A program made the translations under genes and the position numbers. A stretch of DNA of 39,987 bases from a bacterium. Its GTDB lineage: Bacteria; Hydrothermota; Tepidihabitantia; Tepidihabitantales; Tepidihabitantaceae. Positions within the stretch are counted from its first letter, which is position 1, and each line of letters opens with the position of its first letter. The notes under the pieces are model-generated. The model saw only the letters and a list, made by a program, of their open reading frames with translations. It was not told the DNA's origin and made no database searches. Below are positions 1 to 16,731 of this stretch, in pieces. The stretch is from NCBI GenBank assembly GCA_046485285.1, contig JAWOHE010000052.1, forward strand, positions 1 to 39,987. The letters are read 5' to 3'.

Positions 1-51
1 GCCCAAAGTACGCGGGAGGAAGCGCAAAGCAGACGGATTCAGCCCCTAATT

Positions 52-91: not shown

Positions 92-120
92 GGACACAGA
101 TTACCAGATTCACAGACAGG

Positions 121-1332
121 CTACCACGTCCCGGCACAACGGAACCCGAGGAGGTTGTACCGGCGCGACGGTACGAGCCCGAAGCGGAGGGCGCCGCGCA
201 GGTACCTGGCGAGGTCGAGCCAGGACCCGCCGCGGTACACGCGGCTCTAGCCGGTTGCCGGACCCTGCGGGTTGTTGTTTGCGCCCCGGCCGTAGTAGTC
301 CTTGTCGTACCAGTCATCGCACCATTCCCAGACATTCCCGGCCATATCCAAGAGGCCATAGGGCGAGGCTCCGGCCGGAAACGCCCCGACCGGCGCGGTA
401 TTGACATACCCGTCGTCGTAGCCTGTGATGATTGTCCAGTCAGAGTATCGCCGTTTGGCTGACTCGTCCGCGAAGTTCCCATTCCTGCTCGACCCCGGCG
501 CGCTGCTGCCCCACGGGTACTCCCTCGCATCCGTGCCCCGCGCCGCCTTTTCCCATTCCGCCTCGGTCGGCAGGCGCTTGCCCGCCCAGTCGCAGTAAGC
601 CTTGGCGTCGTCCCAGCTCACGTTGACAACCGGGTAGTCAGGGCAGGACCTGAGGTAGTCAGGCTTTCCGAGGAAGTCCGGGTCCTGCGGGTAGCTCCTC
701 CCGGTCGCGTCGCAGAACCGCCTGTACTGGCGGTTGGTCACCTCGTGCTTGTCGATGTAGTACGCGTCCAGATACACCTGCCGCACCGGCTTCTCGTCGT
801 CGAACTCGGTGGAGCCCATCGTGAAGGTCCCGGCCGGAATCTTCACCATCACCGATGAGTCCTTCAGCCACAGCGCCTCCTCGTAGCCCTGCGCGTTACG
901 GCCCCGGGCAACCGGGCCCGCCGGCGCCAGCACCCGGGCGGTGACGACGCAGTCGGAATACCCCTGTGCCTGGATGCGCACCTCGTGCTCGCCGACCGCC
1001 ACCCCGGTCACCGTCGTCGGCGTGTTGCCGACATAGGTCCCGTCGAGTTTCACCGCCGCGCCCGCCGGCGAGGAACTCACCGCCAGCGTGTCGCCGGACA
1101 CCGTCACCTTTCCCTCGACTCGCTTCGGCCTCGGCCTGCTCGTCTCGACCGGCACCAGCCTGACCGGCCTGCCGTCTTCGCCCGTGCACTCCGCGCAGAA
1201 GTTGTCCTCGTCCGGGTAGGTCGCCCCGCACTTCGGGCACTTCCTTGCGGCAAGCGCGACCGCCGCGACGAGCAGCAAGGTAACGGCTGCGATCACGATG
1301 CGCCTGCCTCGACTGACGCTCTGAACGTTCAT
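121..1332 (-). pseudogene. DGR target 1: secreted Zn-ribbon/PEGA/FGE-sulfatase (CLec-fold) protein interrupted by in-frame TAG at 247-249
   Basis: ATG at 1332 after AAGGAGG RBS. Signal peptide, CPKC..CAEC motif, PEGA-like segment (SSSPAGAAVKLDG..GNTP), FGE motifs (RLPTEAEWEKAARG, DMAGNVWEWC). The frame continues past the TAG as SRVYRGGSW...LGFRCAGTW* to 121, matching the C-termini of its paralogs. Confidence 0.8.
129..252 (-). repeat. DGR variable repeat VR1
   Basis: Colinear with the TR. By manual alignment 23 of 32 TR adenines are substituted; the only non-adenine difference is TCG->TAG. Confidence 0.92.
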
Positions 1333-1400
1333 CTGCAGTACCTCCTTTGCAGGTTTGCCTGCACCGGCATCGCTGAATCGTAACCCGCGCCGTCGGCCAG

Positions 1401-2465
1401 TCAACCGGCCAGCAGGCCGGCGCGGCCCAGCACCTGCCGGTTCAGCCGGTAGCTGTTACCCCACCGGCTGTGCCCGAGCCAGGCGGTGAGCGACTCGCGC
1501 ACCCGCCGGTTGCGCGCCGCGCCGCTTCCGGCCGCCAGCTTCCTGAGAGCCCTCGCATAGCGCACCGCGGTCGCCTTCCGCACCAGCCGGTGGCCCGGCC
1601 AGACCCGGAACCCGAGGAACTCCGCGCCGTCGCCGGTGCGCCAGACCCGGGTCCGCGCTTCGTGCAGCGTCAGCCTGAGGTCCCACAGGAAGCGCTCGAT
1701 GTCGCGCCGGACTCCGTGCAGCGCCGACGGGTTGTCGGCGAAGACCGCGAAGTCGTCCATGTAGCGCAGGTAGCGCCGACAGCGCAGTTCCTCCTTGACG
1801 AAGTGGTCCAGCTTGTTCAGGTAGACATTGCCGAAGAACTGGCTGGTCAGGTTGCCGATCGGCAGGCCGCGCACACGGGCAAGCGGCGTAAACAGGTCGT
1901 CGCCCGGGAACCAGGCGAGCTCGTACTCCGGCTCGAGGATACCGGCGCCGCTGGCCAGAATCAGCTCACACAGCGCCAGCACCCGCCGGTCCCGGATGCG
2001 CCGGTCGAGCTGTCGCCTCAGTATCCCGTGGTCCACCGACGGGTAGAACTTGCGGATGTCGCCGCGGAGGACGAACCGGCTCCCCCGCGCCCAGCGCTGG
2101 TAGCGGGCGAGCGCCCGGTGCTGGCCCTTGCCCCTCCGGCAGGCGTAGGAGTCGTGGATGAACCCGGTCTCGAAAACCGGCTCAAGAATGGCGTGGAGGG
2201 CGTGGTGGACAACTCGGTCCCGGAACGGCGCCGCGGTTATCAATCTGCGCTTCTGGTCCTCGACGTAGAAGTTGCGGTAAGGCCCGGGCCGCCACTCACC
2301 GGAGACCAGTTCGCGCTGGAGCCGCAGGAGTCCGGGCTCTAGGTTCAGCTCGAATGCCGCGACATCAGGCCGGCCGCGTTTCCCTCGCCGGGCCTGCCGG
2401 AAAGCGGCCAGCAGGCTTTCGAACCGGACCATTCGCTCGAACCGGCCGCCGAAGCTGTGCGGCAT
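1401..2465 (-). CDS. DGR reverse transcriptase
   Basis: RT motifs PFRDRVVHHA, DIRKFYPSVDH, GLPIGNLTSQ (SQ signature typical of DGR RTs), RYMDDF and FLGFR. About 354 aa with no maturase or endonuclease tail. Adjacent to TR and avd. Start taken at MPHSF (ATG 2465). Confidence 0.95.
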   Translation of the reverse strand: MPHSFGGRFERMVRFESLLAAFRQARRGKRGRPDVAAFELNLEPGLLRLQRELVSGEWRPGPYRNFYVEDQKRRLITAAPFRDRVVHHALHAILEPVFETGFIHDSYACRRGKGQHRALARYQRWARGSRFVLRGDIRKFYPSVDHGILRRQLDRRIRDRRVLALCELILASGAGILEPEYELAWFPGDDLFTPLARVRGLPIGNLTSQFFGNVYLNKLDHFVKEELRCRRYLRYMDDFAVFADNPSALHGVRRDIERFLWDLRLTLHEARTRVWRTGDGAEFLGFRVWPGHRLVRKATAVRYARALRKLAAGSGAARNRRVRESLTAWLGHSRWGNSYRLNRQVLGRAGLLAG

Positions 2466-2655
2466 CACGCAAGGTCGCCCGGGCGCGGGCCGCGGGCGCC
2501 AGCCGCCTGCCGGTCCGCGCCCGGACTGCTCCATTGTGGTCAGCCGCGCAAGCCTGCCACGGCCGACTCAGGACACGGGCAATCCGGTAGCCTCTCAGCG
2601 CAGTCCGCCGGTCCGTGGACCGGCGGCATCTGGTCGAAAGCTCCGAGGCCACTGC
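2466..2655 (-). ncRNA. Structured spacer between TR and RT (likely 3' part of the DGR template RNA)
   Basis: Non-coding interval with inverted repeats 2605-2614/2617-2626 (perfect) and 2479-2492/2511-2524 (one mismatch). Position matches the DGR spacer region. Confidence 0.5.
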
Positions 2656-2780: not shown

Positions 2781-2795
2781 TTTCTGCCCGTGCCC

Positions 2796-3146
2796 TCAAC
2801 CGGGCAGCCGGGTCTGTTGTCGAATCCAGCCGCCCAGAAGCCTGCCGATTTCATCAATCTCCCTTGCCGCATACTCGTATGAGTTTGTCGCGAGCACCTT
2901 CAGCTCGTGGCTCAGCCGCACCAGCACGCGCAGTGTCTCGAGCGCGGCGTCGGCCCTGTCCAGCAGGGCCAGCTTGTCGCGCCGCCGGTTTGCGGACACC
3001 GCCGCCTCCAGCACGGTCAGCGCCCGGTCCTCGATTCTCACCGCCAGCGAGAACCTCAGCGACTTCGGGAACTTCTGCGTGTGCCGTAACAGCCAGCAGG
3101 AGAAATCGAAGCTACGCTGAATTACCAGAAACTCCGTTCTTGCCAT
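2796..3146 (-). CDS. avd: DGR accessory variability determinant (Avd), four-helix bundle
   Basis: 116 aa, basic and helical, with KFPKSLRFSLAVRI and EIGRLLGGW motifs. Immediately upstream of the TR. Confidence 0.9.
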   Translation of the reverse strand: MARTEFLVIQRSFDFSCWLLRHTQKFPKSLRFSLAVRIEDRALTVLEAAVSANRRRDKLALLDRADAALETLRVLVRLSHELKVLATNSYEYAAREIDEIGRLLGGWIRQQTRLPG

Positions 3147-3163
3147 TTTTCGCCGCCCGTCGA

Positions 3164-3232
3164 GCGGCGGCTTCGCCGCCGCCCCCGGAGCCCAGATATT
3201 CAGATTTCCAGATTACCAGATTCACAGACAGG
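3164..3232 (-). other. Conserved post-VR cis module: AATCTG octamer repeats plus GC hairpin (gcggcggc-GAA-gccgccgc)
   Basis: Nearly identical to 11986-12056. The 8-bp stem with 3-nt loop at 3164-3182 resembles the target-recognition hairpin found downstream of DGR VRs. Confidence 0.75.
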
Positions 3233-5200
3233 CTACCACGTCCCGGCACAACGGAACCCGAGGTCGCGGCTCCGGTACGACGGCGCGTACCCGACGCGGT
3301 GGGCGCCGCGCAGGCCCCAGGCGACGTTGAGGTTCCAGGACCCGCCGCGGAGCACGCGGAACGAGCCGGATGACGGCCCCGGCGGGTTGCGGTCCACGCC
3401 TTTGCCGTAGTAGTCGCTGTCGTACCAGTCATTGCACCATTCCCAGACATTCCCGGCCATATCGAGCAACCCATAGGGCGAGGCGCCGGCCGGGAACGAC
3501 CCGACCGGTGAGGTATGTCGGTAGCCGTCTTCGGTATAATTGCCCGGGTCATAGTTTGCCCGGTATCTCCCACCCGCGTCCGGCGCTTCATTGCCCCACG
3601 GATACTTCCGCCCATCCGTGCCCCGCGCCGCCTTCTCCCATTCCGCCTCGGTCGGCAGACGCTTGCCCGCCCAGTCGGCATAAGCCCTGGCGTCGTCCCA
3701 ACTGACATTGACCACGGGATAGGACGGATAGGACTGAAAGTAGTTGGACATGCTCTCGAAACCCGGGTCCTGCGGGTAGCCCCGGCCGGTCGCGTCGCAG
3801 AACTTCTTGTACTGCCGGTTGGTCACCTCGTGCTTGTCGATGTGGTACGCGTCCAGATACACCTGCCGCACCGGCTTCTCGCCGCTGTCCGCGTCGCTCG
3901 CGTCCGACCCCATCGTGAAGGCCCCGGCCGGAATCCTGACCATCACCGACGAGTCCTTGAGCCACAGCGCCTCCTCGTAGCCCTGCGCGTTCCGGCCGAG
4001 GGAGCGCATACCGCCTGCCGCCGGTCGCTCACCGCTCACCGCAGGCTGTTCGGCTGCTCCGGGCCCGGCAGGAGCGGCATCCCTGCCGCGATTGCCCGTC
4101 AGAACGACCAACAACACCACCGCGGCGATGGCAATGCCGATGCCGATGCCGAGAACCGCCTTGCGGCGAGGAGGGTGATGAGTGATGAGTGATGAGTAAT
4201 GCGGAACCTCCGGCACCGCCGCCACCGGGTCCGGTATCGTCTTCCGCATCACCGCTTCCGGCCGTATGCTGTGAGCTGGCGGCTGTCGGCCTTTCTCCTC
4301 ATCGGGCTGTAAGCTGTCGGCTGGTGGCTGTGGGCTTCTCTCCTCCGGCTGTAAGCTGTGAGCTGTCAGCCGTAGGCTGTTCTCCAGCGCTTCTGCGAAT
4401 TCCTCACAGCTCTGGAACCGCTCCTGCGGCTTCTTCCGCATCGCCTTGAGTATCACCCGTTCCATCGCTTCGCTGATTCCCGGGTTCGCCCTGCGCGGCG
4501 GTATCGGCGGCTCCTGCAGGTGCGCCTCGAAGAACGAGGAGGTGTCGGATTCGTCAAATGGCAGTCGGCCGGTCGCGGCCTCGTACAGGGTACAGCCGAG
4601 CGAGTAGATGTCCGTGCGCCGGTCCAGCCGCTTGTCCAGCACCTGCTCCGGCGACATGTAAGCCGGAGTGCCGACCCGGTGGCCGGATACCGACACGCCG
4701 GTGTTGCCGGAGACGATCCGGGCAATCCCGAAGTCGCCGACCTTTGCCCCGAACTCGGTCAGCATTATGTTCAAGGGCTTCAAATCACGGTGGACGATTC
4801 CGTGCCGGTGGGCGAACCCGACCGCGGAGAGCACCTGACCGAAGAGCCGCCCGAGTTCTTCCGGCGGCAGTGCGCCCCGGGCCTTCACCAGCCCGGCAAG
4901 GTCCCGCACCCCGCGGACCCCGGCGATGTATTCGAGTATCAGGAACAGGCCGTCCTCGTTCTCGACATAGTCGAAGAGCGAGACGATGTTCGGGTGGCCC
5001 CTGAGCCGGGCCTGGGAGTTGGCCTCGTCCGCGGCCCGGCGGGCCGCTTCCGGGTCCCCGAAGATGAGCTTGGGGGAGAGGAGCTTGACCGCCACGACCT
5101 GGCTCTCGATTTTCCGGTGCACTGCGCGATAGACCACGCCCATCCCGCCCCGGCCGACCTCTTCGGTGATGCGGTAGTTGCCGACAAGAACGCCAATCAT
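3233..5200 (-). CDS. DGR target 2: membrane Ser/Thr (Hanks) kinase with C-terminal FGE-sulfatase/CLec variable domain
   Basis: Kinase motifs GRGGMGVVY, VAVK, HRDLKPLN, DFG, GTPAYMSPE. TM helix AVLGIGIGIAIAAVVLLVVLTG. FGE domain ends in the VR (RGGSW...LGFRCAGTW). Confidence 0.93.
   Translation of the reverse strand: MIGVLVGNYRITEEVGRGGMGVVYRAVHRKIESQVVAVKLLSPKLIFGDPEAARRAADEANSQARLRGHPNIVSLFDYVENEDGLFLILEYIAGVRGVRDLAGLVKARGALPPEELGRLFGQVLSAVGFAHRHGIVHRDLKPLNIMLTEFGAKVGDFGIARIVSGNTGVSVSGHRVGTPAYMSPEQVLDKRLDRRTDIYSLGCTLYEAATGRLPFDESDTSSFFEAHLQEPPIPPRRANPGISEAMERVILKAMRKKPQERFQSCEEFAEALENSLRLTAHSLQPEERSPQPPADSLQPDEEKGRQPPAHSIRPEAVMRKTIPDPVAAVPEVPHYSSLITHHPPRRKAVLGIGIGIAIAAVVLLVVLTGNRGRDAAPAGPGAAEQPAVSGERPAAGGMRSLGRNAQGYEEALWLKDSSVMVRIPAGAFTMGSDASDADSGEKPVRQVYLDAYHIDKHEVTNRQYKKFCDATGRGYPQDPGFESMSNYFQSYPSYPVVNVSWDDARAYADWAGKRLPTEAEWEKAARGTDGRKYPWGNEAPDAGGRYRANYDPGNYTEDGYRHTSPVGSFPAGASPYGLLDMAGNVWEWCNDWYDSDYYGKGVDRNPPGPSSGSFRVLRGGSWNLNVAWGLRGAHRVGYAPSYRSRDLGFRCAGTW
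3241..3367 (-). repeat. DGR variable repeat VR2
   Basis: All substitutions versus the TR are at TR adenines (about 23), plus one extra NNC codon in the first AAC run. Confidence 0.92.
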
Positions 5201-5211
5201 GGCCGGGAGCC

Positions 5212-5242
5212 CACAGCCGACAGCTCACAGCCATCAGCTATC
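5212..5242. repeat. Heptamer array (cacagcc/gacagct/atcagct) downstream of the four-helix gene
   Basis: 7-nt periodicity; inverted relative to the array at 5673-5707. Confidence 0.7.
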
Positions 5243-5293
5243 CGGACATGGGCAACAGAACATCTGCTCCGGACGACGGTCAACCGTATGGAC

Positions 5294-5656
5294 CTATTCA
5301 TCAGCCGCCGTGACGCGCTGTAACAGCCGGGTCAGCATTCTCTTGACTTCTTCGTACTTCGCTTCCAGCCCGGCAACTTCACCCGGCTTCGCGTACCCTA
5401 GCCTTCCGGCAAGGCTCAACTGGTAACGAACTTCCTCGCAGGAGCCGATAGCGATATTCACGAACCGGGCGAAGTCTCTCTGGCTGGACCGGGCCGCACC
5501 CTCGACAAGGTTCATCGGTATCGAATACGCGGCACGCCGCATCTGCGACGTGAGTCCGAACTGCTCGCTCCGCGGAAACTGCCCGGTCAGGAGATACACC
5601 CGGAGTACCATTTCGTCTGCCAGCTTGAATACTTCGTACTTACCGATGTTTCTCAC
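5294..5656 (-). CDS. Four helix bundle protein (23S rRNA IVP-like family)
   Basis: FPRSEQFGLTSQMRRAAYSIPMNLVEG...FVNIAIGSCEEVRYQL is the family pattern. GTG start at 5656 after GGAGG. Confidence 0.88.
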   Translation of the reverse strand: MRNIGKYEVFKLADEMVLRVYLLTGQFPRSEQFGLTSQMRRAAYSIPMNLVEGAARSSQRDFARFVNIAIGSCEEVRYQLSLAGRLGYAKPGEVAGLEAKYEEVKRMLTRLLQRVTAADE

Positions 5657-5672
5657 CTGACCTCCGCGGCCC

Positions 5673-5707
5673 GCTGGCTGTAAGCTGTAAGCTGATAGCT
5701 GACGGCT
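5673..5707. repeat. Heptamer array (gtaagct/gatagct/gacggct) upstream of the four-helix gene
   Basis: 7-nt periodicity; 5694-5707 is the reverse complement of 5229-5242 with one mismatch. Confidence 0.7.
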
Positions 5708-5711
5708 CCTC

Positions 5712-8303
5712 TCATACAATATCCCTCCTCCTCAGCGCGAGCGCGGCGAGGATGGTGAAGACAGCGGTCAGGAAGGACAGCACCAGCAGGCCGGGGACGA
5801 GCCCGAGCGTCGGCATCTCCTTGAACCAGTAGAAGGTGTTCGCCCCATCCCGGGTCATCGCCAGCGCGGGCGTGAGCTGGCCGACGGTCCGGGTGCTGAA
5901 CCGTGACAGGACGTCCAGCACCCAGCGCGATATCATCAGGTTCGAGAAGAACCTCATCGGCCCGAGCTGGGGCAGGGGCACGACCATCCCGGCGAAGAGC
6001 ACCTGCGGTATCAGCGTCAGCGGCACCAGCCCCATCGCGCCCTCGGGCGATGACAGGAGAGCGGAAATCAGCAGGCCCATCGCCGACCCGGCAATCCCGC
6101 CCAGGGTCAGGACCGCGGTGTAGCCGAGGATACTGCCCGGCAGTTCCGCCACCATCAGCTTGACGATGACCGACAGCACGAGGCATTGGACGAACAGGAA
6201 CACCGCCAGCACAAACGCCTTGGACAGGATGTACGGCGCAATCTTCAGGTTCACCATCCTCTCCCGGCGATAGACCGACCACTCGGCGACGATTTCCCGG
6301 CAGGAGTTGGTCGCCCCGAACCATATCGCCGCCAGCGCCAGCATGAACAGCACCCCGCCCATCGCCTCGTAGCCCTTGTCCCCGAAGACCAGCCCGATGA
6401 GCAGGGCGATTATCGGCGCCTGGGCGAGCAGGACCGCGGTGCCGGCGGTGTCGGAGAGCTTCATCCGCCAGTAGCGCCGGACCAGGATGCCCCACTGGCG
6501 CAGGCCGTTGGTCGGCTGGCGCCCGGTCTTCGCGCCGACCCCGGTCTTGACGCTCTTGACCTCCATCCGGCCCGCGACATAGTCCGCATAGTACCGGGAC
6601 TCCCGGAACTTCCGCTCCCAGTACTCGCCCGGCCGGTAGATCGGCTCGCCGCACTTGTCGCACTTCGGCAGGGGGCGGGGCGCGGTCGGGAACTTCCGGT
6701 CGCACTTCGGGCAGTACTTGCCGCCGAGGTAGAACAGCAGCTTGCGCGGGTCGTCCCGGCCGATCCCGCCGAAGTGGTCGAAGACCTCCCGGCCCGGCCC
6801 GTGGTAGACCAGCCTGCCCTCGTCCACCAGCAGGACCATGTCGAGCGTGTCGAATGTCGAGCGGGACTCGACATTGTGGGTCGTCAGTATCACCGACCGA
6901 CCGCCGCGCGCGGCCTCGGCCAGCACCTCGGTCACTTCCTCCGCGGTCGCCGGGTCGAGCCCGGACAGCGGCTCGTCGAGGAACAGGCAGGCCGGTTCGG
7001 TTATCAGCTCCTGGGCGAGGTTCACCCGCTTGCGCTGGCCGCCGGAAATCCCCCGCTTCTGCGGGTCGCCGATGCGGACGTTGCGACAGCCGTCCAGCCG
7101 CAGGTCGCTGATGACCTCGTCCACCCGTTGCTTCACTTCCGCGTCCGAGGTGTCCTCGGGCAGCCTGAGCTTGGCGGTGTAGTAGAGCGACTGCTCGACG
7201 GTCAGCGACCGGTGGATGATGTCGTCCTGCGGCACGTAGCCGATATTGCCGCGCAGGGCGTCGTAGTTCGCGTAGAGGTCAACCCCGCCGAACCGGACCA
7301 GGCCGGTCGCACTGCTGTCGTAGCCGGTGATGACGTTGAGCAGGGTGGTCTTGCCCGAGCCGGACGGCCCGATGAGTCCGGTGAACTCGCCCGGGCAGGA
7401 GACGAAGGAGATGTTCTGGATGATGACCGTGCTCGGGACCTCTTTGCGGATGTCGGCGGCCTCGAGCTTGACCTGGCCGGGCTCGGCCGGATGCCTCAGC
7501 CGCTCCTCCTCAAACGCGAGCGCGTATGATCCTAGGCCGATGGTGTCGCCCCGGGCGAGCAGGGCCTCGGTGACCCGCCGGCCGTTGACGAAGGTGCCGT
7601 TCATCGAGCCGAGGTCCCTGATGAAGGTGCCCGACCCGCGGCGCTCGATGCGGCAGTGATGCCGGGAGACCTGGGGGTAGTTGACCACGAGGTCGTTGTC
7701 GGTGGCCCGGCCGATGCTCAGTCGGTCCCGGTCGAGGTGGATGACCCGGTCCTGCTTCCTGTCCCCGAGCGCGCGCTCACCGAACCGGCGCGAGGCCAGC
7801 CGCGAGAACTCCGGCCGGCGCTCGCTCACGCGCCCGGCGCCGCCTGCCACCCCGCCCGACTCGTCGCGGGCCGGCGGGCGGTCGGCGGACGGCTCGTCTC
7901 CGTCCGGCCGAGTCAGGCGGCATTCCACGACCGCTTCCTGCTCAACCCGAAATCGCAATGCCCCGCTCCGACCCAGTCTTACGACCTGTCCGGACTCGAC
8001 CCGGCTCTCGGTCACCCGCTCTTTTCCCGCGCCGACGTAGGTGCCGTTCAGCGAGCCGAGGTCGCGCACGACCGCGCGCCCGGCGGCATCGGTCCCGACC
8101 CAGCAGTGCAGGCCCGAGATGCTGTGCTCCGGGTCCTGCACCTCGAGGAGGAGCGGCTCGCCCTCGGTCGGCAGTCCCAGCTCCGCCCGCCGCCGGGCCG
8201 CGTCCTCGAGCTTCTCCTTCCAGTAGCCGATGAGCACCCCGGCCCGGGGAAGTTCGCACTCCTCACCTTGCCTCGGCCCGGCGATGATGCTCAGCCTGGC
8301 CAC
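5712..8303 (-). CDS. FHA-FHA-ABC ATPase-permease fusion (Rv1747-like ABC transporter)
   Basis: Two FHA-like segments (ISGLHC..DLGSLNGTYV; IGRATDND..VSRHHC..DLGSMNGTFVNG), Walker A GPSGSGKTT, ISGGQRKR signature, FLDEP Walker B and C-terminal ABC-2-type TM helices. Confidence 0.9.
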   Translation of the reverse strand: MARLSIIAGPRQGEECELPRAGVLIGYWKEKLEDAARRRAELGLPTEGEPLLLEVQDPEHSISGLHCWVGTDAAGRAVVRDLGSLNGTYVGAGKERVTESRVESGQVVRLGRSGALRFRVEQEAVVECRLTRPDGDEPSADRPPARDESGGVAGGAGRVSERRPEFSRLASRRFGERALGDRKQDRVIHLDRDRLSIGRATDNDLVVNYPQVSRHHCRIERRGSGTFIRDLGSMNGTFVNGRRVTEALLARGDTIGLGSYALAFEEERLRHPAEPGQVKLEAADIRKEVPSTVIIQNISFVSCPGEFTGLIGPSGSGKTTLLNVITGYDSSATGLVRFGGVDLYANYDALRGNIGYVPQDDIIHRSLTVEQSLYYTAKLRLPEDTSDAEVKQRVDEVISDLRLDGCRNVRIGDPQKRGISGGQRKRVNLAQELITEPACLFLDEPLSGLDPATAEEVTEVLAEAARGGRSVILTTHNVESRSTFDTLDMVLLVDEGRLVYHGPGREVFDHFGGIGRDDPRKLLFYLGGKYCPKCDRKFPTAPRPLPKCDKCGEPIYRPGEYWERKFRESRYYADYVAGRMEVKSVKTGVGAKTGRQPTNGLRQWGILVRRYWRMKLSDTAGTAVLLAQAPIIALLIGLVFGDKGYEAMGGVLFMLALAAIWFGATNSCREIVAEWSVYRRERMVNLKIAPYILSKAFVLAVFLFVQCLVLSVIVKLMVAELPGSILGYTAVLTLGGIAGSAMGLLISALLSSPEGAMGLVPLTLIPQVLFAGMVVPLPQLGPMRFFSNLMISRWVLDVLSRFSTRTVGQLTPALAMTRDGANTFYWFKEMPTLGLVPGLLVLSFLTAVFTILAALALRRRDIV

Positions 8304-8361
8304 GGCAATCTCCCTTCTGGCTCATCACTTCTGAATCCGGCCGCTTCCTTCTCGTCACTCA

Positions 8362-8868
8362 TTACTCATCACTTCCTGACACCGCTTCCCTCAACCGCTC
8401 CCGGACCGCCAGCCGTTCCTCGACCCGGAAGCCCAGCCGCACCCGGCCCAGTGGCGTCCTCAGCCGGTACTCGCCCTCGACCCGGCAGGCCGCGTCATCG
8501 CCCGCCAGCCGCGGCAGGGACCGCAGGATGCCCGCCGCGTCGGGCGTGAACGGCAGGCGGACCAGGGTCGCGACGCCGGGCCGCAGTTCCAGCTCGCCCG
8601 GGTACCTGCCCCGGCCGACCGCCGTTCCCTCAACCGCCAGCCGGTACTCGAGCTCGCTCAGCCGCACCGCGAACCGGTTCGGGTTCGTCGCGACCACGGC
8701 CAGCTCCAGACCCTGCTCCGGGTTCCAGGCCAGGCCGGCCAGCCGCGCCTCGACCGGCTTCACCAGCCACGAGCAGGAAACCGCCGGCAGCAGCAGGCAC
8801 GGCCAGGCGCGAACCACCAGGCGGACAATGCCGCGCACGGAACTGCCGACCGCGTCTCCGGCTCGCAC
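8362..8868 (-). CDS. LEA type 2 (WHy-domain) lipoprotein
   Basis: Lipobox-like LPAVSC; ATNPNRFAVRLSELEYRLAVEG..VGRG is the LEA_2 pattern. Start uncertain. Confidence 0.7.
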   Translation of the reverse strand: MRAGDAVGSSVRGIVRLVVRAWPCLLLPAVSCSWLVKPVEARLAGLAWNPEQGLELAVVATNPNRFAVRLSELEYRLAVEGTAVGRGRYPGELELRPGVATLVRLPFTPDAAGILRSLPRLAGDDAACRVEGEYRLRTPLGRVRLGFRVEERLAVRERLREAVSGSDE

Positions 8869-8869
8869 T

Positions 8870-10306
8870 TCACAGCCTCTGGAACACGTGCCCGCACCGG
8901 GTGCAGAACCTCGCGGCGGCCTTGCGCGTCGTCCCGCAGTCCGGACAGGTCCGCCTGCCCCAGCACCAGGTCACCCGCACCGTGTCGCCCCGGTTCAGCG
9001 GCGCGCCCGCCGCCGGCCGGGCAGTGACCACCGCGCCCGGCGCGGCATCGTCCGCAAGCACGCTGTCGGCGGCAACCAGCACCAGGCCCTGCTCCTGCGC
9101 CAGCCGCCGCGCCGAGGCGAGGCTGACTCCCGCCAGCTCCGGAAGCACGAACCCGGCCGTCGGCTGTCTGCGTGCCAGGAGGACTCCGCCGACCACCGCC
9201 ACAACCAGCACCGCCGCGATGCCAATGACGAGAACCGCCTTGCGGCGAGGAGGGTGATGAGTGTCTTCCGCTGACCGCTTGCCGCCGCCCGCTCTCTTCA
9301 CTCTTCCCTCTTCGCTCCTCACTTCCTCCTCCGGCACCGCCGCCACCGGGTCCGGTATCGTCTTCCGCATCACCGCTTCCGGCCGTATGCTGTGAGCTGG
9401 CGGGTGTCGGCCTTTCTCCTCATCGGGCTGTAAGCTGTCGGCTGCTGGCCGCAGGCCTCTCTCCTCCGGCTGTCGGCTGTCCGCCAGCGCCTCCGCAAAC
9501 TCCTCACAGCTCTGGAACCGCTCCTCCGGCTTCTTCGCCATCGCCTTGAGTATCGCCCGTTCCATCGTTTCGCTCAGCCATGGATTCCTCTGCCGCGGCG
9601 GCGGCGGCGGCACGGACAGGTGCTGTTCCTCCATCGAGGTCGTCGAGGTCGCCTGGAACGGCATCGCGCCCGCGGCCAGTTCGTAGAGCACGCAGCCCAG
9701 CGAGTAGATGTCGGTGCGCGCGTCCAGCGGCCGGTTCAGCACCTGCTCCGGCGACATGTAGGCGGGAGTGCCGACCCGGGTGCCGGAGAGCGAGATGTTC
9801 GTGTCGCCGCCGATTATCTTGGCGATGCCGAAGTCGGCGATCTTCACCAGCCCGGACTCGGCAAACAGGATGTTCAGCGGTTTTATGTCCCGGTGCAGGA
9901 CCCCGTGCCGGTGCGCGCAGGACACGCCCTCGAGTATCTGCCGGAATATCTCCCGGGTCCGGGCCTCGGGCACCGGCCCGAGCTTGACCAGGTCGCCGAG
10001 GTTCTTCGCCCGCTGGCCGCCGGGCAGGACCATGCCTTCGAGATACTCCATCACGATGTAGTACTGCCCGTCGTGCTCGAAGAAGTTGTGCAGGGTGACG
10101 ATGTTCGGATGCTTGAGCCGGGCCTGGGTCTTCGCCTCCTCGAAGAACCGCTGGCGGAACCGGACATCCCGGGTCAGGATGGCATCGAGCGTCTTCATCG
10201 CCACTTCCTGCTCGAGGAGCCGGTGCACGGCCTTGTACACGACCCCGAACCCGCCCTCACCGAGCTTGTCGGTGATGCGATAGTCGCCGATGGATTGGCC
10301 GATCAT
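8870..10306 (-). CDS. Membrane Ser/Thr kinase with PASTA domain and C-terminal zinc ribbon
   Basis: Kinase motifs GEGGFGVVY, HRDIKPLN, DFG, GTPAYMSPE. TM helix, PASTA-like LPELAGVSLASARRL..PAAGAPLNRGDTVRV, then CPDC..CTRC. Confidence 0.9.
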   Translation of the reverse strand: MIGQSIGDYRITDKLGEGGFGVVYKAVHRLLEQEVAMKTLDAILTRDVRFRQRFFEEAKTQARLKHPNIVTLHNFFEHDGQYYIVMEYLEGMVLPGGQRAKNLGDLVKLGPVPEARTREIFRQILEGVSCAHRHGVLHRDIKPLNILFAESGLVKIADFGIAKIIGGDTNISLSGTRVGTPAYMSPEQVLNRPLDARTDIYSLGCVLYELAAGAMPFQATSTTSMEEQHLSVPPPPPRQRNPWLSETMERAILKAMAKKPEERFQSCEEFAEALADSRQPEERGLRPAADSLQPDEEKGRHPPAHSIRPEAVMRKTIPDPVAAVPEEEVRSEEGRVKRAGGGKRSAEDTHHPPRRKAVLVIGIAAVLVVAVVGGVLLARRQPTAGFVLPELAGVSLASARRLAQEQGLVLVAADSVLADDAAPGAVVTARPAAGAPLNRGDTVRVTWCWGRRTCPDCGTTRKAAARFCTRCGHVFQRL

Positions 10307-10313
10307 AGGATTA

Positions 10314-10345
10314 GCGATGAGTTATGAGTAATGAGTGATGAGTCA
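10314..10345. repeat. TGATGAG-type heptamer array
   Basis: gcgatga gttatga gtaatga gtgatga. Related arrays at 4175-4201 (same orientation) and at 8321-8375 and 11884-11914 (opposite orientation). Confidence 0.65.
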
Positions 10346-10478
10346 CGGACAGGAATGGCGAAGGGTCGGCGAGCGATGCGTAGAGAACAGGAACAGTGAT
10401 GAGTATCGTGTAATGAGAGAGGACAGGACCGGCCTGGCCGATGGTCGCCTGTCTCTTCCCGCTGCGTTCTCGCTTCAC

Positions 10479-11888
10479 TCATAACCCATCACCTCCTTCT
10501 GCTGTCCCTGTGTCTTTATCCGGCGCTCGCGCGCTGTCGGGCTTCGTTTCATCTTCCGGGCTGTCTGCTGATGGCAGTAAGCTGTCGGCTGTCGGCTGAG
10601 AGCTGTCCGCCTCCGTCCGACCGCTCTCGGCAGTAAGCGGCAAGCTGTCGGCTGATGGCTGACCGCTGTCCTCTTCCGGCGGGCTCAGCAGGTCACGTGC
10701 CTGCCTCTGGAATCCGGGCCCGATGCTCACGGAGCCGGCTGCCGGTTCGAGGCTGGTCGGGTCCTGTGTTGCGCCGGGCGCCGTGCTCGTCTGCCCCTGC
10801 CCGGGGCTGTCTGCTTCCTGCCGTTCCGGGCTGTCGGCTGGAAGCTGCAGACTGTCGGCTTCCTCTTGTCTCAGGCTGTCAGCTGGAAGCTGTAAGCTGT
10901 CGGCTTCCGGCTGTCCGCTGTCCACGGCCGGCCGTTCCAGGTACCGCCAGACCGCAAACGCAAGCACGAGCAGGAAGACCAGCCCGGCAAGCACCAGCGG
11001 CAGCGCCCGTCGGCGGCCGGCGCGCCGCGGGCGCCGCGGCGCGGACGCGGTCAATGGCATCGTTTCCCGGCCGTGCGCAGTCGGCTGTAAGCTGTCGGCT
11101 GCCCGCGCCGCTTCGCCCGCCTGCACCACAATCACCGTCACGTTGTCCGGCGCGCCGCGCTTCTTGACCTGCTCGACGATCTCCAGCACCGCCCGGTCCG
11201 GCGGATGCCGGAGCAGGATGTCGCGCAGTTCCTCGTCCTCCAGCACCCCGTGCGCGCCATCACTGCTGAGCAGGAACCGGTCCCCGGCCCGCGGTTCGAG
11301 CTCGAAGGACTCGGCCTCGGACCTGGCTATCCCGAGCGCGCGGCTGATGATGTTCCGCTTCGGGCTGTTCCGGGCCTGCTCCGGGGTCATCAGGCCCTTG
11401 CTGACCAGCCGGGCGACCAGGGTGTGGTCGTTGGTAATCTGCGACATCTGCCCGTCGCGCAGGAGGTAGCACCGGCTGTCGCCGACGCTGGCGATGTATG
11501 CCTTGTCACCGTGAAGCACGAGCGCGGTCAGGGTCGCGCCCATTCCCTTCCGCTCCGGCGCCTCGGCGGCCGCCGCCACCGCCTCGTGGGCCGCCCGCAT
11601 CGCCTGCGCCAGCATCCGGCCCGGGTCGCCGGCCCACGGTCGCCGGTAGTAGTGCTCGCTGAGCGCGTCCACGCCCAGCCTGCTCGCGACCTCGCCCGCC
11701 GCCTCGCCGCCCATCCCGTCCGCTACCGCGTACAGCCTGCCCCGCTCCACCAGCAAACGGTCCTCAACTGCACTCGGGACGAAGAGCGCATCCTCGTTCT
11801 TGGGCCGGGCCGGGTTCAGTCCCCGGTCGGTGGCAGAGCCGATGGATGGAGGACAATCGCCCACCGCCGCCTCCTTATCCCGACTCAT
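10479..11888 (-). CDS. Membrane-anchored PP2C/Stp1-family Ser/Thr phosphatase
   Basis: Motifs NEDA, VADGMGG, GATL, VGDSRCY, DHTLV, LLSSDG, DNVT. TM helix followed by a low-complexity ADSxQP repeat tail. Confidence 0.92.
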   Translation of the reverse strand: MSRDKEAAVGDCPPSIGSATDRGLNPARPKNEDALFVPSAVEDRLLVERGRLYAVADGMGGEAAGEVASRLGVDALSEHYYRRPWAGDPGRMLAQAMRAAHEAVAAAAEAPERKGMGATLTALVLHGDKAYIASVGDSRCYLLRDGQMSQITNDHTLVARLVSKGLMTPEQARNSPKRNIISRALGIARSEAESFELEPRAGDRFLLSSDGAHGVLEDEELRDILLRHPPDRAVLEIVEQVKKRGAPDNVTVIVVQAGEAARAADSLQPTAHGRETMPLTASAPRRPRRAGRRRALPLVLAGLVFLLVLAFAVWRYLERPAVDSGQPEADSLQLPADSLRQEEADSLQLPADSPERQEADSPGQGQTSTAPGATQDPTSLEPAAGSVSIGPGFQRQARDLLSPPEEDSGQPSADSLPLTAESGRTEADSSQPTADSLLPSADSPEDETKPDSARAPDKDTGTAEGGDGL

Positions 11889-11985
11889 TGCTCATCACCC
11901 TTCACTCATTACTTCCTCTCAATGCGCGGCACGGGACAGGTTGCGGCCGTCCCGGCGCAGAGGTATGACCGCATCATCAGCCGTC

Positions 11986-12056
11986 GAGCGGCGGCTTCGC
12001 CGCCGCTCCCGGAGCCCAGATATTCAGATTTCCAGATTACCAGATTCACAGACAGA
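11986..12056 (-). other. Conserved post-VR cis module: AATCTG octamer repeats plus GC hairpin (gagcggcggc-GAA-gccgccgctc)
   Basis: 10-bp perfect stem at 11986-12008; module nearly identical to 3164-3232. Confidence 0.75.
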
Positions 12057-13142
12057 CTACCTTGTCCCGGCACAACGGAACCCGAGGAAGATGATCCGGA
12101 ACGATGGTTCGTACCTGCCGCGGTAGGCGCTGCGCAGGGACCCGGCGTTGTTGAGCCAGGACCCGCCGCGGTACACGCGGGGCGAGCCAGTCGCCGGGCC
12201 CTGCGGGTTGCGGTCCACGCCTTTGCCGTAGTAGTCGCTGTCATACCAGTCATTGCACCATTCCCAGACATTACCCGCCATATCCAGCAACCCATAGGGC
12301 GACGCACCCGCCGAAAAGCTGCCCACCGGCGCCGTGAACTCGTAGCCGTCCCGCCGCCAGACGGCCCGGTCCGAGCCTTCGCCCCAGTTCGCCCGGTATC
12401 TTCCGCCCGCATCCGGCTCCTCGTTCCCCCACGGGTACTTCCGCGCATCCGTGCCCCGGGCCGCTTTCTCCCATTCCGCCTCGGTCGGCAGGCGCTTGCC
12501 CGCCCAGTCGCAGTAAGCCCTCGCGTCGTTCCACGACACCAGCACTGCCGGGTGGTTCTCGGTGCTGTACCCGTAGTACGTCCGCCAGCTCACCCCGGAC
12601 TTGGTCAGCCACTTCGACAAGTCGGTGTCGTAGACGTAACCGGTACCCTCCTTCTCGGCGTCGGTCCGGTACCCGGTCGCCTTCACGAACCTCTCATACT
12701 GCCGGTTCGTCACCTCGTGCTTGTCCAGCCAGAACTCGTCGAGATACACCCTGTGCTGGGGCCGCTCGTCGGACTCTCCCTCGCCCGTGACGCTCCCCAT
12801 CCAGAACTCGCCGGCCGGGACCTTCACCATCACCGACGAGTCCTTCAGCCACAGCGCTTCCTCGTAGCCCTGAGCGTTCCGGCCCAGCGCCTTCATTCCG
12901 GCCGGTGCAGTCGGCGCCGGGGCCGGCGCCGGGGCAGGCCTCGGCGCGGGCCTCGGCACCGGCACCAGCCGCAACGGCTTGCCGTCTTCGCCCGCGCACT
13001 CCGCGCAGTAGTTGTCCTCGTCCGGGTAGGTCGTCCCGCAGTTCGGGCACCGCTTCGCCGCCAGCGCGAGCGAGACGACCATAACCAGCAGGATGCCGGC
13101 CGCCATCCGCCCGGCCCGGCCCGCAAATCGCCGCGAGTTCAT
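12057..13142 (-). CDS. DGR target 3: secreted Zn-ribbon + Pro/Ala linker + FGE-sulfatase/CLec protein
   Basis: RBS AAGGAGG, signal peptide, CPNC..CAEC, PAPAPAP linker, FGE motifs and C-terminal VR (RGGSWLNNAGSLRSAYRGRYEPSFRIIFLGFRCAG). Confidence 0.92.
   Translation of the reverse strand: MNSRRFAGRAGRMAAGILLVMVVSLALAAKRCPNCGTTYPDEDNYCAECAGEDGKPLRLVPVPRPAPRPAPAPAPAPTAPAGMKALGRNAQGYEEALWLKDSSVMVKVPAGEFWMGSVTGEGESDERPQHRVYLDEFWLDKHEVTNRQYERFVKATGYRTDAEKEGTGYVYDTDLSKWLTKSGVSWRTYYGYSTENHPAVLVSWNDARAYCDWAGKRLPTEAEWEKAARGTDARKYPWGNEEPDAGGRYRANWGEGSDRAVWRRDGYEFTAPVGSFSAGASPYGLLDMAGNVWEWCNDWYDSDYYGKGVDRNPQGPATGSPRVYRGGSWLNNAGSLRSAYRGRYEPSFRIIFLGFRCAGTR
12065..12189 (-). repeat. DGR variable repeat VR3
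   Basis: 18 of 32 TR adenines substituted and no non-adenine differences in manual alignment. Confidence 0.93.
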
Positions 13143-13172
13143 CGCACGCGCCTCCTTTCTTGCGCCCCGCCC

Positions 13173-13673
13173 TCAGCGCCCGTCCTCCCCGCCTCCGGCC
13201 TGCGCCCTCTTCATCAGCGGCCTCAGCAGCGACGCGGCGGTGAAGTTCTGCTCCGAGGTCGCGGCGATCGAGTATGACCCGCGTACCTGGTACTTGACCC
13301 CGCGCTTCGCGACCGCCGACCTGATGCCGGTCAGCACGCTGCCGGCCTTGACCGACAGCGGCACCGCGATGACCTGCGACCCCTCGGCCTCGACCGTCAC
13401 CGGCGCCTGCTGTTCGCCCGAGGCGACGACCGCGCCGTCGATGATGACCTCGTACTTGATGTCCGAGACCGAGACCGTCATCTTCGACGGGTTGCTGACC
13501 TTGAGCTCGAGCTTTGCCGGGAACTCGAACAGCTCGAGCCCGACCGGGGCGAGGTCGAGCAGGACCGCGCCCGCCGTGCCGGACAGGAAGGTCGCGCAGG
13601 CCGGACCGAGCCCGGCGCAGGCGGCCGCCAGCAGCAGGACCATCCCCGCGCGCCGACTTGCCTTGTGTCTCAC
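13173..13673 (-). CDS. LEA type 2 family protein (probable lipoprotein)
   Basis: GTG at 13673 after GGAGG; hydrophobic N-terminus with Cys; LKVSNPSKMTVSVSDIKYEVIIDG..VASG LEA_2 pattern. This is the 3' part of ORF 13173..14828. Confidence 0.7.
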   Translation of the reverse strand: MRHKASRRAGMVLLLAAACAGLGPACATFLSGTAGAVLLDLAPVGLELFEFPAKLELKVSNPSKMTVSVSDIKYEVIIDGAVVASGEQQAPVTVEAEGSQVIAVPLSVKAGSVLTGIRSAVAKRGVKYQVRGSYSIAATSEQNFTAASLLRPLMKRAQAGGGEDGR

Positions 13674-13690
13674 GGTTTGCCTCCCGTCGC

Positions 13691-14665
13691 TCACTGGCGG
13701 GCCCGGCCGGTGTAGGCCGCGAGCCGGTCCGCCACGTCGAACACGCCCGTGACCTGCACCGGCTCGACCGACCGGCCGCCCTCGGCCTCGAGCGTGTAGT
13801 AGCCGCGCACCCGGTAGCTGACCCTGCCGTGCGCGACCAGCGCGGCCGCGGCCCGGCCCAGCCGGTCGTGGCGGATGTTCACGCTCAGCACGCTCGCCGC
13901 GGCCCGGCCCGGCGGCAGTTCGACATCGCAGGCGTGCTTCGCGCTGGCGAGGTAGAAAGTGTCCACCTCGAGCTTGTAGTAGAACGCCCGGATCCGGCCG
14001 GGCACGAGGTTGGGGTTGGTCGCGGCGAGCCCGACCGCGAGCGTGAAGCCGTCGCCGCCGGCATCGGTCGCCTCGACCGAAGTCAGCTCGATTGCCGGGC
14101 GGGCGAAGGACAGCGGCACCGGCGGCGGCGGCGGCGCGGTGCTGATAACGAGGTTGACCGGCTGTCCCCGCATCAGCTCCGTGCCCGCCGGCGGGTCCAT
14201 CCTGACGATCCGGCCAGGCGGGTACTCGGTCGTCCGCTCGGTCGTGACCTTGCCCGGGACGAGGCCCGACCTCGGCAGCTCGACGGCGGCGTCCTCGCGC
14301 TTGAACCCGGCCAGCTCCGGCACGACCTTCACCGGGCCCTTGCTGACCGTGACCCGCACCGTGTCGTCCTTCTTCACCAGCGTCCCGGCCGCCTGCTCCT
14401 GGCCGAGTATCACGCCCGCCGGTGCCGAGTCGTCCGGCCTGCTCAGCTCCTCCCGGAGCGCCAGCCCGAGCGCGCCGGCGTCCGCCGCCGCCTCCGCGAA
14501 GGGCCGGCCGACGAACTCCGGGACCTTTACCCTGTTGCGCGAGCCGGCGCTGGCCATCACCACGATGACCACGATGACCGCGACGACCGCGAGCGCGACC
14601 ACGATGTAGCGCGTGGTATGCCCGCCCGGTGTCCGGGCCGGGGGGTCTTTCTTCGTCAGCTCCAT
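13691..14665 (-). CDS. Membrane protein with two PASTA domains and C-terminal LEA_2 domain
   Basis: ATG at 14665 after AGGAGG; N-terminal TM; PASTA repeats (VPEFVGR..AGTLVKKDDTVRVTVSKG; VPELAG..PPAGTELMRGQPVNLVIS); TNPNLVPGRIRAFYYKLEVD LEA_2-like segment. Confidence 0.8.
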   Translation of the reverse strand: MELTKKDPPARTPGGHTTRYIVVALAVVAVIVVIVVMASAGSRNRVKVPEFVGRPFAEAAADAGALGLALREELSRPDDSAPAGVILGQEQAAGTLVKKDDTVRVTVSKGPVKVVPELAGFKREDAAVELPRSGLVPGKVTTERTTEYPPGRIVRMDPPAGTELMRGQPVNLVISTAPPPPPVPLSFARPAIELTSVEATDAGGDGFTLAVGLAATNPNLVPGRIRAFYYKLEVDTFYLASAKHACDVELPPGRAAASVLSVNIRHDRLGRAAAALVAHGRVSYRVRGYYTLEAEGGRSVEPVQVTGVFDVADRLAAYTGRARQ

Positions 14666-14929
14666 CTCTCCTCCTTGTCCTGCCTGCCGCCGCATTGCCG
14701 CGGCCTGCCGGCCACTCGACGCCGGTCCGGGCCCGGTCGGCGGCGTTGCCGATTGACTTCGTGTGACTTGTTACCCGGCCGGTCGGCCGGGCGCGACTGA
14801 CTGTCCGTGCGGCCGGTCTGCGGCCCACGGCGCGATGCGAGCACTCGCTTACCTCCTCTGCCGCGACGCGTTCACAATGCCGCTGTCGCGCCCGCGGCCC
14901 TGCGCGTCAGGGCACATCTGCCTTAAGCG

Positions 14930-14956
14930 ATTATAGCCGCAATTGCCCTCTGTCAA
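14930..14956 (-). promoter_or_regulatory. Putative sigma70 promoter for the kinase/DGR cluster
   Basis: TTGACA-N15-TATAAT on the minus strand in GC-rich intergenic DNA. The spacer is shorter than optimal. Confidence 0.55.
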
Positions 14957-15228
14957 GCGACCGGCGACTCCACCGCGGTCCGGAAGCTGGTGAAGACAGA
15001 CTGACCCGGGCCTGCGAACAGGCGGCGGGAGGCCAGAAGTCTCCCGCCGCACGCTTGAAGCAGGCTGCCGCCGCTCTGCGGCGTCGCACGGCCGGACAGG
15101 CGTGGCGGTGGCGCCGGGCGCGGCTCGAAGCGCTCCGGGCAGTCTGCCGGGGCGCCAGCCGGGCGGCCGGGGTAGGGAAGCTGGGGGCGCGGGTCAGCCG
15201 GCCGCAACCGCTTCGGGCGACGCGCCCG

Positions 15229-16686: not shown

Positions 16687-16731
16687 CGCCACGCGATGTT
16701 AGCGCTTGCCGCCCGCGCGGTCAAGTGGCGG

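Follow-up and report, generated by a model that had tools for sequence, protein, structure and literature searches.

The window analysed here is contig C15 (JAWOHE010000052.1), 39,987 nucleotides of a 2.34-Mb metagenome-assembled genome (MAG; GCA_046485285.1) that is 88% complete and is labelled G000 in what follows. Twelve genes (g01 to g12), all on the minus strand, run from position 14695 to the contig end, and in them a diversity-generating retroelement (DGR) and its three targets, one of them a membrane-spanning Hanks kinase, stand among a second kinase, a PP2C phosphatase, an ABC exporter bearing FHA domains and three LEA_2 proteins; this island, a candidate envelope-signalling system, is the subject of the present account. 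Every domain that a first-pass annotation had read from the letters was confirmed by Pfam, as was the common orientation of the genes, and the feature that it delimited at 3233-14665 is real; the range was drawn too narrowly, leaving out the DGR core and a third target at 247-3146. Upstream, beyond 14.8 kb, lie two proteins without a Pfam match and then TrkH/TrkA, and the island therefore begins near 14.7 kb; at its other extremity the contig end cuts it just past the third variable region. The two adjoining open reading frames (ORFs), at 15229-16692 (487 aa) and 16732-18222 (496 aa), are likewise on the minus strand and have no Pfam family at E <= 0.001. Chimeric assembly is disfavoured, the same gene order being present on a 157-kb contig of a relative, G022. 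The closest homologue of the kinase target, P0002, comes from G023, a member of the same GTDB family that NCBI names a candidate division WOR-3 bacterium, and we infer that G000 too belongs to WOR-3. Relatives carry labels of the form G0xx and were compared as a set of 41 genomes including G000, within a phylum set of 272.

The DGR is complete (bAvd, template repeat, reverse transcriptase and a second Avd-like gene), and it has rewritten three variable regions (VRs) of formylglycine-generating enzyme (FGE)/C-type lectin (CLec) fold at adenines of the template repeat (TR). It has the features by which a DGR is recognised: a reverse transcriptase (RT) gene beside the TR, TR/VR differences confined to adenines, an Avd gene, and a C-terminal VR with a conserved 3' flank in a target of CLec fold. 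The RT gene, g11 (2534..1401; 377 aa; RVT_1 4.5e-19), lies directly downstream of the TR core (2657-2779; 32 adenines, 17 variable codons); its translation contains YMDD, which we take to be the RT active site, and orthologues align with it from about residue 24. The bAvd accessory protein is g10 (2796..3146; 116 aa), which scores 79.4 bits (3.5e-22) where the cut-off is 40. VR1, at residues 612-653 of the kinase g09 (3242..3367), differs from the TR at 28 positions, 27 of them TR adenines, and by a 3-nt insertion, so that the proposal that the DGR targets a kinase with a transmembrane segment and a CLec domain holds. VR2 (12066..12188) closes g03 (12057..13142; 361 aa), a signal-anchored protein (hydrophobic residues 10-28) with a zinc ribbon (Zn_Ribbon_1) and an FGE-sulfatase domain (7.8e-72); it has no indel, all 19 of its mismatches fall on TR adenines, and it matches perfectly elsewhere. 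VR3 (130-252), with 24 of 26 mismatches at TR adenines, lies in g12 (121..1404, open to 247), where Pfam finds a zinc ribbon, PEGA and FGE/CLec. No variable TR codon can be converted to a stop, and the repeat allows for about 10^17.5 different proteins.

Downstream of VR1 and VR2, about 95 nt of 3' flank are held in common, with four AATCTGG-type octamers and a GC hairpin of 9-10 bp with a GAA loop; flank comparison, DNA folding and Tandem Repeats Finder (TRF) place these elements at 3163..3222 for VR1 and at 11986..12046 for VR2 (10-bp stem, z = -2.88; TRF period 8), and we infer that the shared flank is an initiation of mutagenic homing (IMH) element or a cruciform. The VR3 flank has only the first ~37 nt of this stretch, and the GC hairpin is absent. 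Instead, a 20-nt sequence is perfectly duplicated in tandem in this flank of g12, at 52-91. The four-helix-bundle protein g08 (5294..5656; likely start the GTG at 5656, preceded by GGAGG) was rightly recognised in the first-pass annotation, but it probably belongs to the retroelement: it matches 23S_rRNA_IVP (4.4e-34), TIGR02436 (112.7 bits, cut-off 24) and, weakly, bAvd (1.5e-06), and is present in the DGR-bearing G022 and G014, and neither the G023 nor the G037 locus shows it. Because it is confined to the three DGR loci and has these matches, it is read as a second DGR accessory and not as a signalling part. Orthologues of g11, 67-70% identical, occur in three of the 41 genomes (G000, G022 and G014 only), and the G022 orthologue of g10 is 77% identical.

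A DGR can also decay, and the differences between the VRs and the TR might be historical, with retrohoming ended and the specificity of the kinase fixed. VR1 carries the 3-nt indel; VR3 opens with an in-frame TAG (247-249) where the TR reads TCG, a C-to-A change at a non-adenine position that truncates g12, and lacks the hairpin; and G023 has the target and retains the VR flank motif, with no close RT and no TR detected. On the other hand, the ORFs of the RT and both Avd-like proteins are uninterrupted, with 67-77% identity to their counterparts in G022 and G014, VR2 is identical to the TR outside adenines, no TR codon is mutable to a stop, and the extra VR1 codon is NNC inside an AAC-AAC-AAC run, as slippage in that run would give; it is read as an insertion in VR1 because the G022 TR also has three codons there. 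A decaying element is, on this evidence, rather improbable. Of the soluble variable binders proposed from the sequence, one, g12, is truncated by a stop.

The kinase target g09 (3233..5200; 655 aa) joins a Hanks kinase (Pkinase 4.2e-50) through one hydrophobic segment (residues 349-367) to an FGE-sulfatase domain (4.7e-68) that ends in VR1. In an alignment of seven orthologues the motifs K39, HRDLKPxN (137-144), DFG (156-158) and SPE (183-185) are invariant; we take these to be the catalytic Lys, the HRD loop, the DFG motif and the activation-segment motif. The hydrophobic segment lies between kinase and FGE domain in all seven as well, and the early description of a VR beyond the transmembrane segment of a kinase with intact motifs therefore stands. 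An AlphaFold2 (AF2) model of residues 396-655, built from a 59-sequence alignment, has pLDDT 94.7 and pTM 0.93; Foldseek finds FGE structures best (query TM-score, TMq, 0.81-0.83), and also the Treponema variable protein TvpA (2y3c; TMq 0.73, E 2.7e-16), which the domain matches by sequence at 1.6e-19. The catalytic FGE cysteine pair, presumably C336/C341 of the human enzyme and located in the C-terminal segment, has no counterpart in g09, where that segment is the VR and the sole Cys lies in the terminal GFRCAG. Four Omp85-family matches above cut-off were found in the genome, Omp85/BamA being encoded, and a diderm host is for that reason most likely. Given that VR1 lies beyond the sole transmembrane segment of a protein from such a genome, it is predicted to be periplasmic and not outside the cell, so that the outward-facing variable receptor first envisaged must very likely be given up; a periplasmic VR changes which ligands are plausible. 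In the orthologues P0002 (G023:C16) and P0009, PASTA lies between the kinase and the single transmembrane segment (in P0002, PASTA 1.7e-11 at residues 291-352 and transmembrane residues 427-445), and so by prediction on the side of the cytoplasm, where PASTA is not usually found.

Upstream of this target lie the parts from which a phosphorylation circuit might be built. The second kinase, g05 (8870..10306; 478 aa; Pkinase 2.1e-57), has a transmembrane segment at residues 358-376 followed by PASTA (6.9e-08) and a zinc ribbon, and is a paralogue of g09, with 59% identity over residues 1-375. For both kinases the best NCBIfam model is the Stk1-family PASTA kinase (334 and 282 bits, below the cut-off of 450). 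The phosphatase, g04 (10479..11888; 469 aa; PP2C_2 1.7e-13; transmembrane residues 295-313), has a repeat-rich extracytoplasmic tail and Stp1/IreP as its best NCBIfam model (201.5 bits, below the cut-off of 230). The exporter, g07 (5712..8303; 863 aa), carries two FHA domains, an ABC_tran nucleotide-binding domain (NBD) and an ABC2_membrane permease with six hydrophobic segments in one chain, and its transporter part is ABCG-like. Its second FHA domain (FHA-2) finds the FHA domain of Rv1747 (6cah) as best PDB match at 9e-15 and keeps GR, SRxH and NGT motifs in five of five orthologues, residues which we take to bind phospho-Thr; the linker between the two FHA domains is long and variable and contains Ser and Thr. 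The LEA_2 proteins are g01 (13691..14695; 334 aa; hydrophobic residues 31-49, PASTA in two stretches at 4.2e-25, LEA_2 4.5e-06), the small g02 (13173..13643; LEA_2 6.2e-13), which has a hydrophobic N-terminus and is started at the ATG of MVLLL, and g06 (8362..8868; 168 aa; LEA_2 2e-10). In g06, Cys32 follows a hydrophobic stretch and is invariant in four of four orthologues, which supports its earlier reading as a lipoprotein; the other LEA_2 proteins do not share this support.

Whether these genes form one system or are merely neighbours is the central question, and it is possible to suppose an envelope module of housekeeping type (PASTA kinase, PP2C and FHA-ABC) that has come by chance to adjoin a DGR cassette, whose kinase-CLec target would signal to other substrates. 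Such a coincidence is unlikely. The two kinases are paralogues that share a 153-nt tract at 95% identity, and the genome offers few other partners: its only two FHA matches are the two g07 domains and its single PP2C_2 match is g04, with none elsewhere, so that the idea of a linked writer, eraser and reader gains support. Three of four LEA_2 matches and two of four Pkinase matches in the genome also lie in the island; PASTA is not specific to it (three of nine matches inside), and the housekeeping PASTA kinase is probably another, encoded on contig C79. A complex prediction for the g05 ectodomain with g06 and g03 scored 0.16 against a mark of 0.32, a value that speaks neither for binding nor against it.

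The kinase domains of g05 and g09 are about 74% identical in DNA, and their juxtamembrane and transmembrane tracts 95-96% (4207-4359 against 9328-9480, the 153-nt tract, and 4138-4184 against 9217-9263). Recent gene conversion is likely, because the near-identical tract is not conserved in orthologues; for the same reason the tract was rejected as a common FHA-docking site. A 7/14-nt periodic repeat, built of GCTGTNN units with core GCTGTAAGCTGT, is matched 11 times in the window, where 0.06 matches are expected. The genome as a whole has 16 matches, and the 11 fall within one 7-kb stretch (sites 4257-4380, 5208-5239, 5664-5706, 9369-9501, 10554-10680, 10807-10941 and 11064-11106). It lies in disordered linkers of the PP2C and of both kinases, where it encodes ADSLQP-like peptide repeats, and also between genes and in either orientation; its presence in coding and intergenic DNA in both orientations points to an origin at the level of the DNA. 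CxxC...CxxC zinc ribbons stand on the predicted extracytoplasmic side, behind the signal anchor in g03 and g12 and behind PASTA at the C-terminus of g05, a placement that recurs in proteins of G022, G037 and G016; zinc ribbons are not usually extracytoplasmic, and the motif may here be a disulfide module. A promoter and terminator scan of window positions 1-15300, which may not cover the promoter type of the phylum, gave 10 terminator-like sites where shuffled sequence gives 6.3 +/- 2.5, and no such site lies between genes of the minus strand.

The neighbourhood is conserved in relatives, with synteny kept in three other genera: tblastn and blastp of the twelve proteins against fetched regions recover the island, with some rearrangement, in G022, G014 and G023, and a part of it in G037. 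In G022 the order is PASTA-LEA, LEA, STK-PASTA (STK, Ser/Thr kinase), ZnR-PEGA-FGE (ZnR, zinc ribbon), LEA, FHA-ABC, four-helix protein, STK-TM-FGE (TM, transmembrane segment), Avd, TR, RT and ZnR-FGE, flanked by genes on the opposite strand; the same island lies over two contigs in G014; G023 has PASTA-LEA, LEA, STK-PASTAx4-TPR, LEA, STK-PASTA-TM-FGE, PP2C and FHA-ABC; and on a short contig G037 has STK-PASTAx2-ZnR with FHA-ABC. Orthologues of g09 of full or near-full length are encoded by G022, G023 and G014, which represent two other genera of the same family, and g02 follows g01 in all three. In G022, too, the kinase VR is mutated chiefly at adenines of the TR in that genome, which account for 25 of 27 mismatches, and in the FGE gene downstream they account for 17 of 20; the FGE gene upstream does not hold a VR of the G022 TR. 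That gene order is shuffled among genera would suit a fortuitous association of module and cassette, but the FHA-ABC gene, an Avd-like gene and the kinase-CLec gene directly adjoin, in that order, in G000, G022 and G014. A cluster kinase is on the FHA-ABC contig in G022, G023, G014 and G037, and G002 is fragmented. FHA occurs in nine of the 41 genomes, and in G014, G022, G023 and G037 both matches are inside the FHA-ABC gene.

Within the phylum the island is rare: an FHA-ABC orthologue was found in six of the 41 relatives and, with three candidates scored per genome, in six of the 272 WOR-3 genomes, three of them with a DGR. Other WOR-3 genera have what may be called a sister module, in G016 (G016:C34:78000-93000, L180) and G040 (C33, L181). 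By Pfam the G016 module consists of FHA-FHA-TPR, PP2C, STK-FHA, PEGA, Ig, STK and a ZnR-PASTA-FGE protein of 669 aa; neither an ABC transporter nor a DGR RT was seen in the modules of G016 and G040. A protein with a type IX secretion system (T9SS) sorting domain follows the module in G016.

Patchy distribution is also what defence islands display, and it might be proposed that the periplasmic variable sensors detect invader proteins or envelope damage, in anti-phage or inter-bacterial conflict, and that the kinase then sets off a response that protects or kills the cell. DGR-diversified CLec sensors have been proposed in conflict systems (accessible parts of PMC7159879 and PMC10907252), and the TagQRST-PpkA pathway is described as sensing membrane damage in the available text of PMC13713981. 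Against this, PADLOC returns generic kinase, RT and ABC-ATPase matches only, and none for CLec, LEA_2, PP2C or the Avd-like proteins; the Pfam scan reveals no effector in the island, whether STAND NTPase, vWA-MoxR, nuclease or of another kind; and TssC/VipB, the T6SS (type VI secretion system) sheath, has no match in the 88%-complete genome, the island itself containing no T6SS gene. A role in conflict accordingly seems a distant prospect.

Outside the phylum, the scans of sequence collections, by an alignment of STK-CLec proteins and by g07 in metagenomes, are samples and not censuses. Fusions of the g09 kind are very common without FHA-ABC, which counts in favour of unrelated neighbours: of 8000 candidates scored as g09 homologues, 7967 have E <= 1e-3, and among the best 120 of them 74 are kinase-then-FGE proteins, 59 of these 74 with exactly one hydrophobic segment between the two domains. 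The STK-CLec scan across other phyla, in which WOR-3 relatives are absent, returned at least 600 stretches, mostly kinase-only or FGE-only loci; several of those listed (L019, L036 and L029) have a small FHA gene beside the kinase. A DGR is present in one of the 80 listed, L022, from a Chloroflexota MAG (DAOUCN010000076.1), whose DGR-targeted STK-TM-CLec system spans 493-4263 with 24 of 27 mismatches between VR (2456-2576) and TR (4143-4263) at adenines; it too suits chance association, no FHA-ABC being found nearby. RT and Avd lie between the VR and TR of L022, and a second STK-TM-FGE paralogue is at 6422-8302. The metagenome scan with g07 gave at least 80 FHA-ABC loci, all 33-40% identical and with no close relatives among the matches listed; 25 of the 80 listed have a kinase, 16 a PP2C, 13 an FGE domain, one an RT and none LEA_2. 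Among them at least 10 contigs share a block of STK-TM-FGE, TPR, an unknown protein and FHAx3-ABC, in which the genes show 59-90% and 71-94% identity from contig to contig and no RT is present; the names of the sources of this block point to Pyrinomonadaceae/Blastocatellia (Acidobacteriota). In L134 (4247-12724) the block adjoins leuS and comprises STK-TM-FGE of 754 aa, TPR, a 473-aa protein without a Pfam family and FHAx3-ABC of 1080 aa; related blocks are in L122, L127, L130, L136, L142, L152, L156, L163 and L164. Adjacency of STK-TM-FGE and FHA-ABC is therefore kept in a second, unrelated lineage, which speaks against mere proximity in WOR-3.

In light of these observations, the locus is probably (at about 0.6) an accessory island for envelope signalling in an uncultured, diderm WOR-3 bacterium, an island whose sensor domains are under DGR control and which couples kinases to an exporter. 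The mechanism that we would propose, because of the analogy with PknF and Rv1747, begins with a ligand that binds the variable periplasmic FGE domain and activates the kinase, probably through dimerisation; sensing could be by the kinase-fused FGE domain itself or by the free zinc ribbon-FGE proteins, as by TagR on PpkA. The kinase g09 and its PASTA paralogue g05 would then phosphorylate Thr in the inter-FHA linker of g07, or in themselves, and the canonical FHA-2 would read the phospho-marks so that the exporter is switched or clustered, as is reported of PknF for Rv1747. The membrane PP2C would reset the state, LEA_2 envelope proteins may be periplasmic accessories, and the DGR would re-evolve recognition by the sensor while leaving the signalling core untouched. 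A bolder form of the proposal, in which the island is a programmable receptor pathway with DGR-rewritable periplasmic FGE sensors and a private phospho-Thr circuit gating an ABC exporter, is possible and to be held only tentatively; if true, it would make the island the prokaryotic counterpart of a diversified antigen receptor, with its downstream effector defined. The role in antigen reception or self/non-self recognition given to the locus at the outset is speculation, and the idea of an antigen sensor is already in the available text of PMC10907252.

Several observations weigh against the proposal of a DGR-controlled signalling island. The topology of g09 and its partners was called by hydropathy only. 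FHA-1 of g07 has Tyr in place of the canonical Arg in four of five orthologues. The extra codon in VR1, and the stop and missing hairpin of VR3, weaken the case for present activity of the DGR on each target, and the codon or the TAG may be an artefact, the consensus of a MAG in a hypervariable region being liable to be chimeric. There is no PP2C in the G022 block, and G023, 95% complete, keeps the island with no close RT and no TR or second VR copy detected. Finally, a full FHA-ABC orthologue occurs in none of the 80 listed loci from other phyla that have kinase and/or FGE homologues of g09, so that the coupling is not general to STK-FGE proteins.

An envelope-signalling island of this kind would have significant implications, given how little is established about the role of cellular DGR targets after binding, and that the kinase-CLec targets so far described are for the most part predicted to be cytosolic and lack known substrates. 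Here the parts of a complete and testable circuit stand together, namely a hypervariable sensor predicted to be periplasmic, its kinase, the PASTA paralogue of that kinase, a phosphatase and, as the only output with FHA domains, the ABC exporter, and the presence of the sole FHA and PP2C set in a small genome means that the candidate wiring is unusually constrained. Further, DGR-free STK-TM-FGE proteins beside FHA-ABC in Acidobacteriota, together with a TagR of the FGE superfamily, suggest that FGE folds are a general class of periplasmic sensor for Hanks kinases, one that is under-appreciated and that a DGR has perhaps been recruited here to diversify, making sensor specificity re-evolvable.

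Of the known systems, pknF-Rv1747 of Mycobacterium tuberculosis provides the model for the exporter: in the available texts PknF positively regulates Rv1747 through phosphorylation of Thr in the linker (PMC3138270, PMC3908365, PMC8339232). As there, g07 unites a pair of N-terminal FHA domains with an NBD and an ABC-2 permease in one chain, beside a transmembrane Hanks kinase, with a long, variable linker containing Ser and Thr between FHA domains, the second of which best matches 6cah. Unlike that pair, the island has two kinases whose sensors are PASTA or a hypervariable FGE domain, comprises in addition a PP2C of its own, the three LEA_2 proteins and a DGR, and resides in a diderm WOR-3 bacterium rather than an actinobacterium; the relatedness is judged by shared domains, and FHA-1 of g07, unlike FHA-2, mostly lacks the canonical Arg.

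The closest parallel at the level of the system, which the first-pass annotation missed, is the TagQRST-PpkA-PppA-Fha1 pathway of the H1-T6SS of Pseudomonas aeruginosa, in which, according to the accessible parts of PMC13713981, TagR, a periplasmic protein of the FGE-sulfatase superfamily that favours activation of the kinase, and the lipoprotein TagQ are proposed to dimerise PpkA upon membrane damage. All six types of part in that pathway, as described there, are in the island: a membrane Hanks kinase, a PP2C, FHA, an ABC-type complex, a lipoprotein and a periplasmic protein of the FGE superfamily. This parallel in parts suggests that g03 and g12 could act as co-sensors in the manner of TagR, with the LEA_2 proteins as partners resembling TagQ, a conjecture by analogy. 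It differs in that FGE domains are here both free (g03, g12) and fused to a kinase (g09), that FHA is fused to the ABC transporter with no separate Fha1, that no T6SS gene was found in the island and no TssC/VipB match in the 88%-complete genome, and that the candidate lipoproteins are LEA_2, the likeness to TagQ and TagR being one of parts list and superfamily only. FGE domains are, moreover, diversified by a DGR here, and none such is reported in the available text of PMC13713981.

Kinase targets of DGRs have precedents, as the early description of the locus rightly noted. In the accessible parts of PMC7517822, a kinase is the commonest N-terminal domain of cyanobacterial DGR targets, which are mostly predicted to be cytosolic; Pkn1/PknD-CLec targets appear in MAG surveys (PMC11661182, available text), and the sensor idea for DGR-diversified CLec domains is in print (PMC7159879, PMC10907252, in the parts accessible). 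In the available portion of Roux et al., cellular DGR targets are mostly membrane-anchored binders and the only mention of a kinase is of a CotH-like viral target; the accessible part of an STK atlas (10.1101/2025.01.12.632604) includes a family with a transmembrane region and an FGE-sulfatase domain. With the cyanobacterial and MAG kinase-CLec targets and the TvpA/Mtd class, g09 shares an N-terminal Hanks kinase and a C-terminal CLec/FGE VR diversified at adenines. Unlike most of the cyanobacterial targets it has a transmembrane segment and a predicted periplasmic VR, and unlike known kinase-CLec targets it has a TR that also serves two non-kinase zinc ribbon-FGE proteins and lies in a conserved island with FHA-ABC, PP2C, PASTA kinase and LEA_2. 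In the kinase-transmembrane-PASTA layout of g05, with Stk1-family and Stp1/IreP as the best models, the island resembles Stk1-Stp1, PknB-PstP and PrkC-PrpC, from which it differs in scores below the curated cut-offs and in a diderm host. A DGR-diversified transmembrane kinase in an island of FHA-ABC, PP2C, PASTA and LEA_2 was not found in print, with the proviso that supplementary tables of DGR surveys may list such loci, and no paper on DGRs in WOR-3 was found. Kinase-FGE fusions, DGR-targeted kinase-CLec proteins and the concept of a variable sensor are thus already known; what is new is their combination with a candidate circuit that is PknF/Rv1747-like and TagR/PpkA-like at once.

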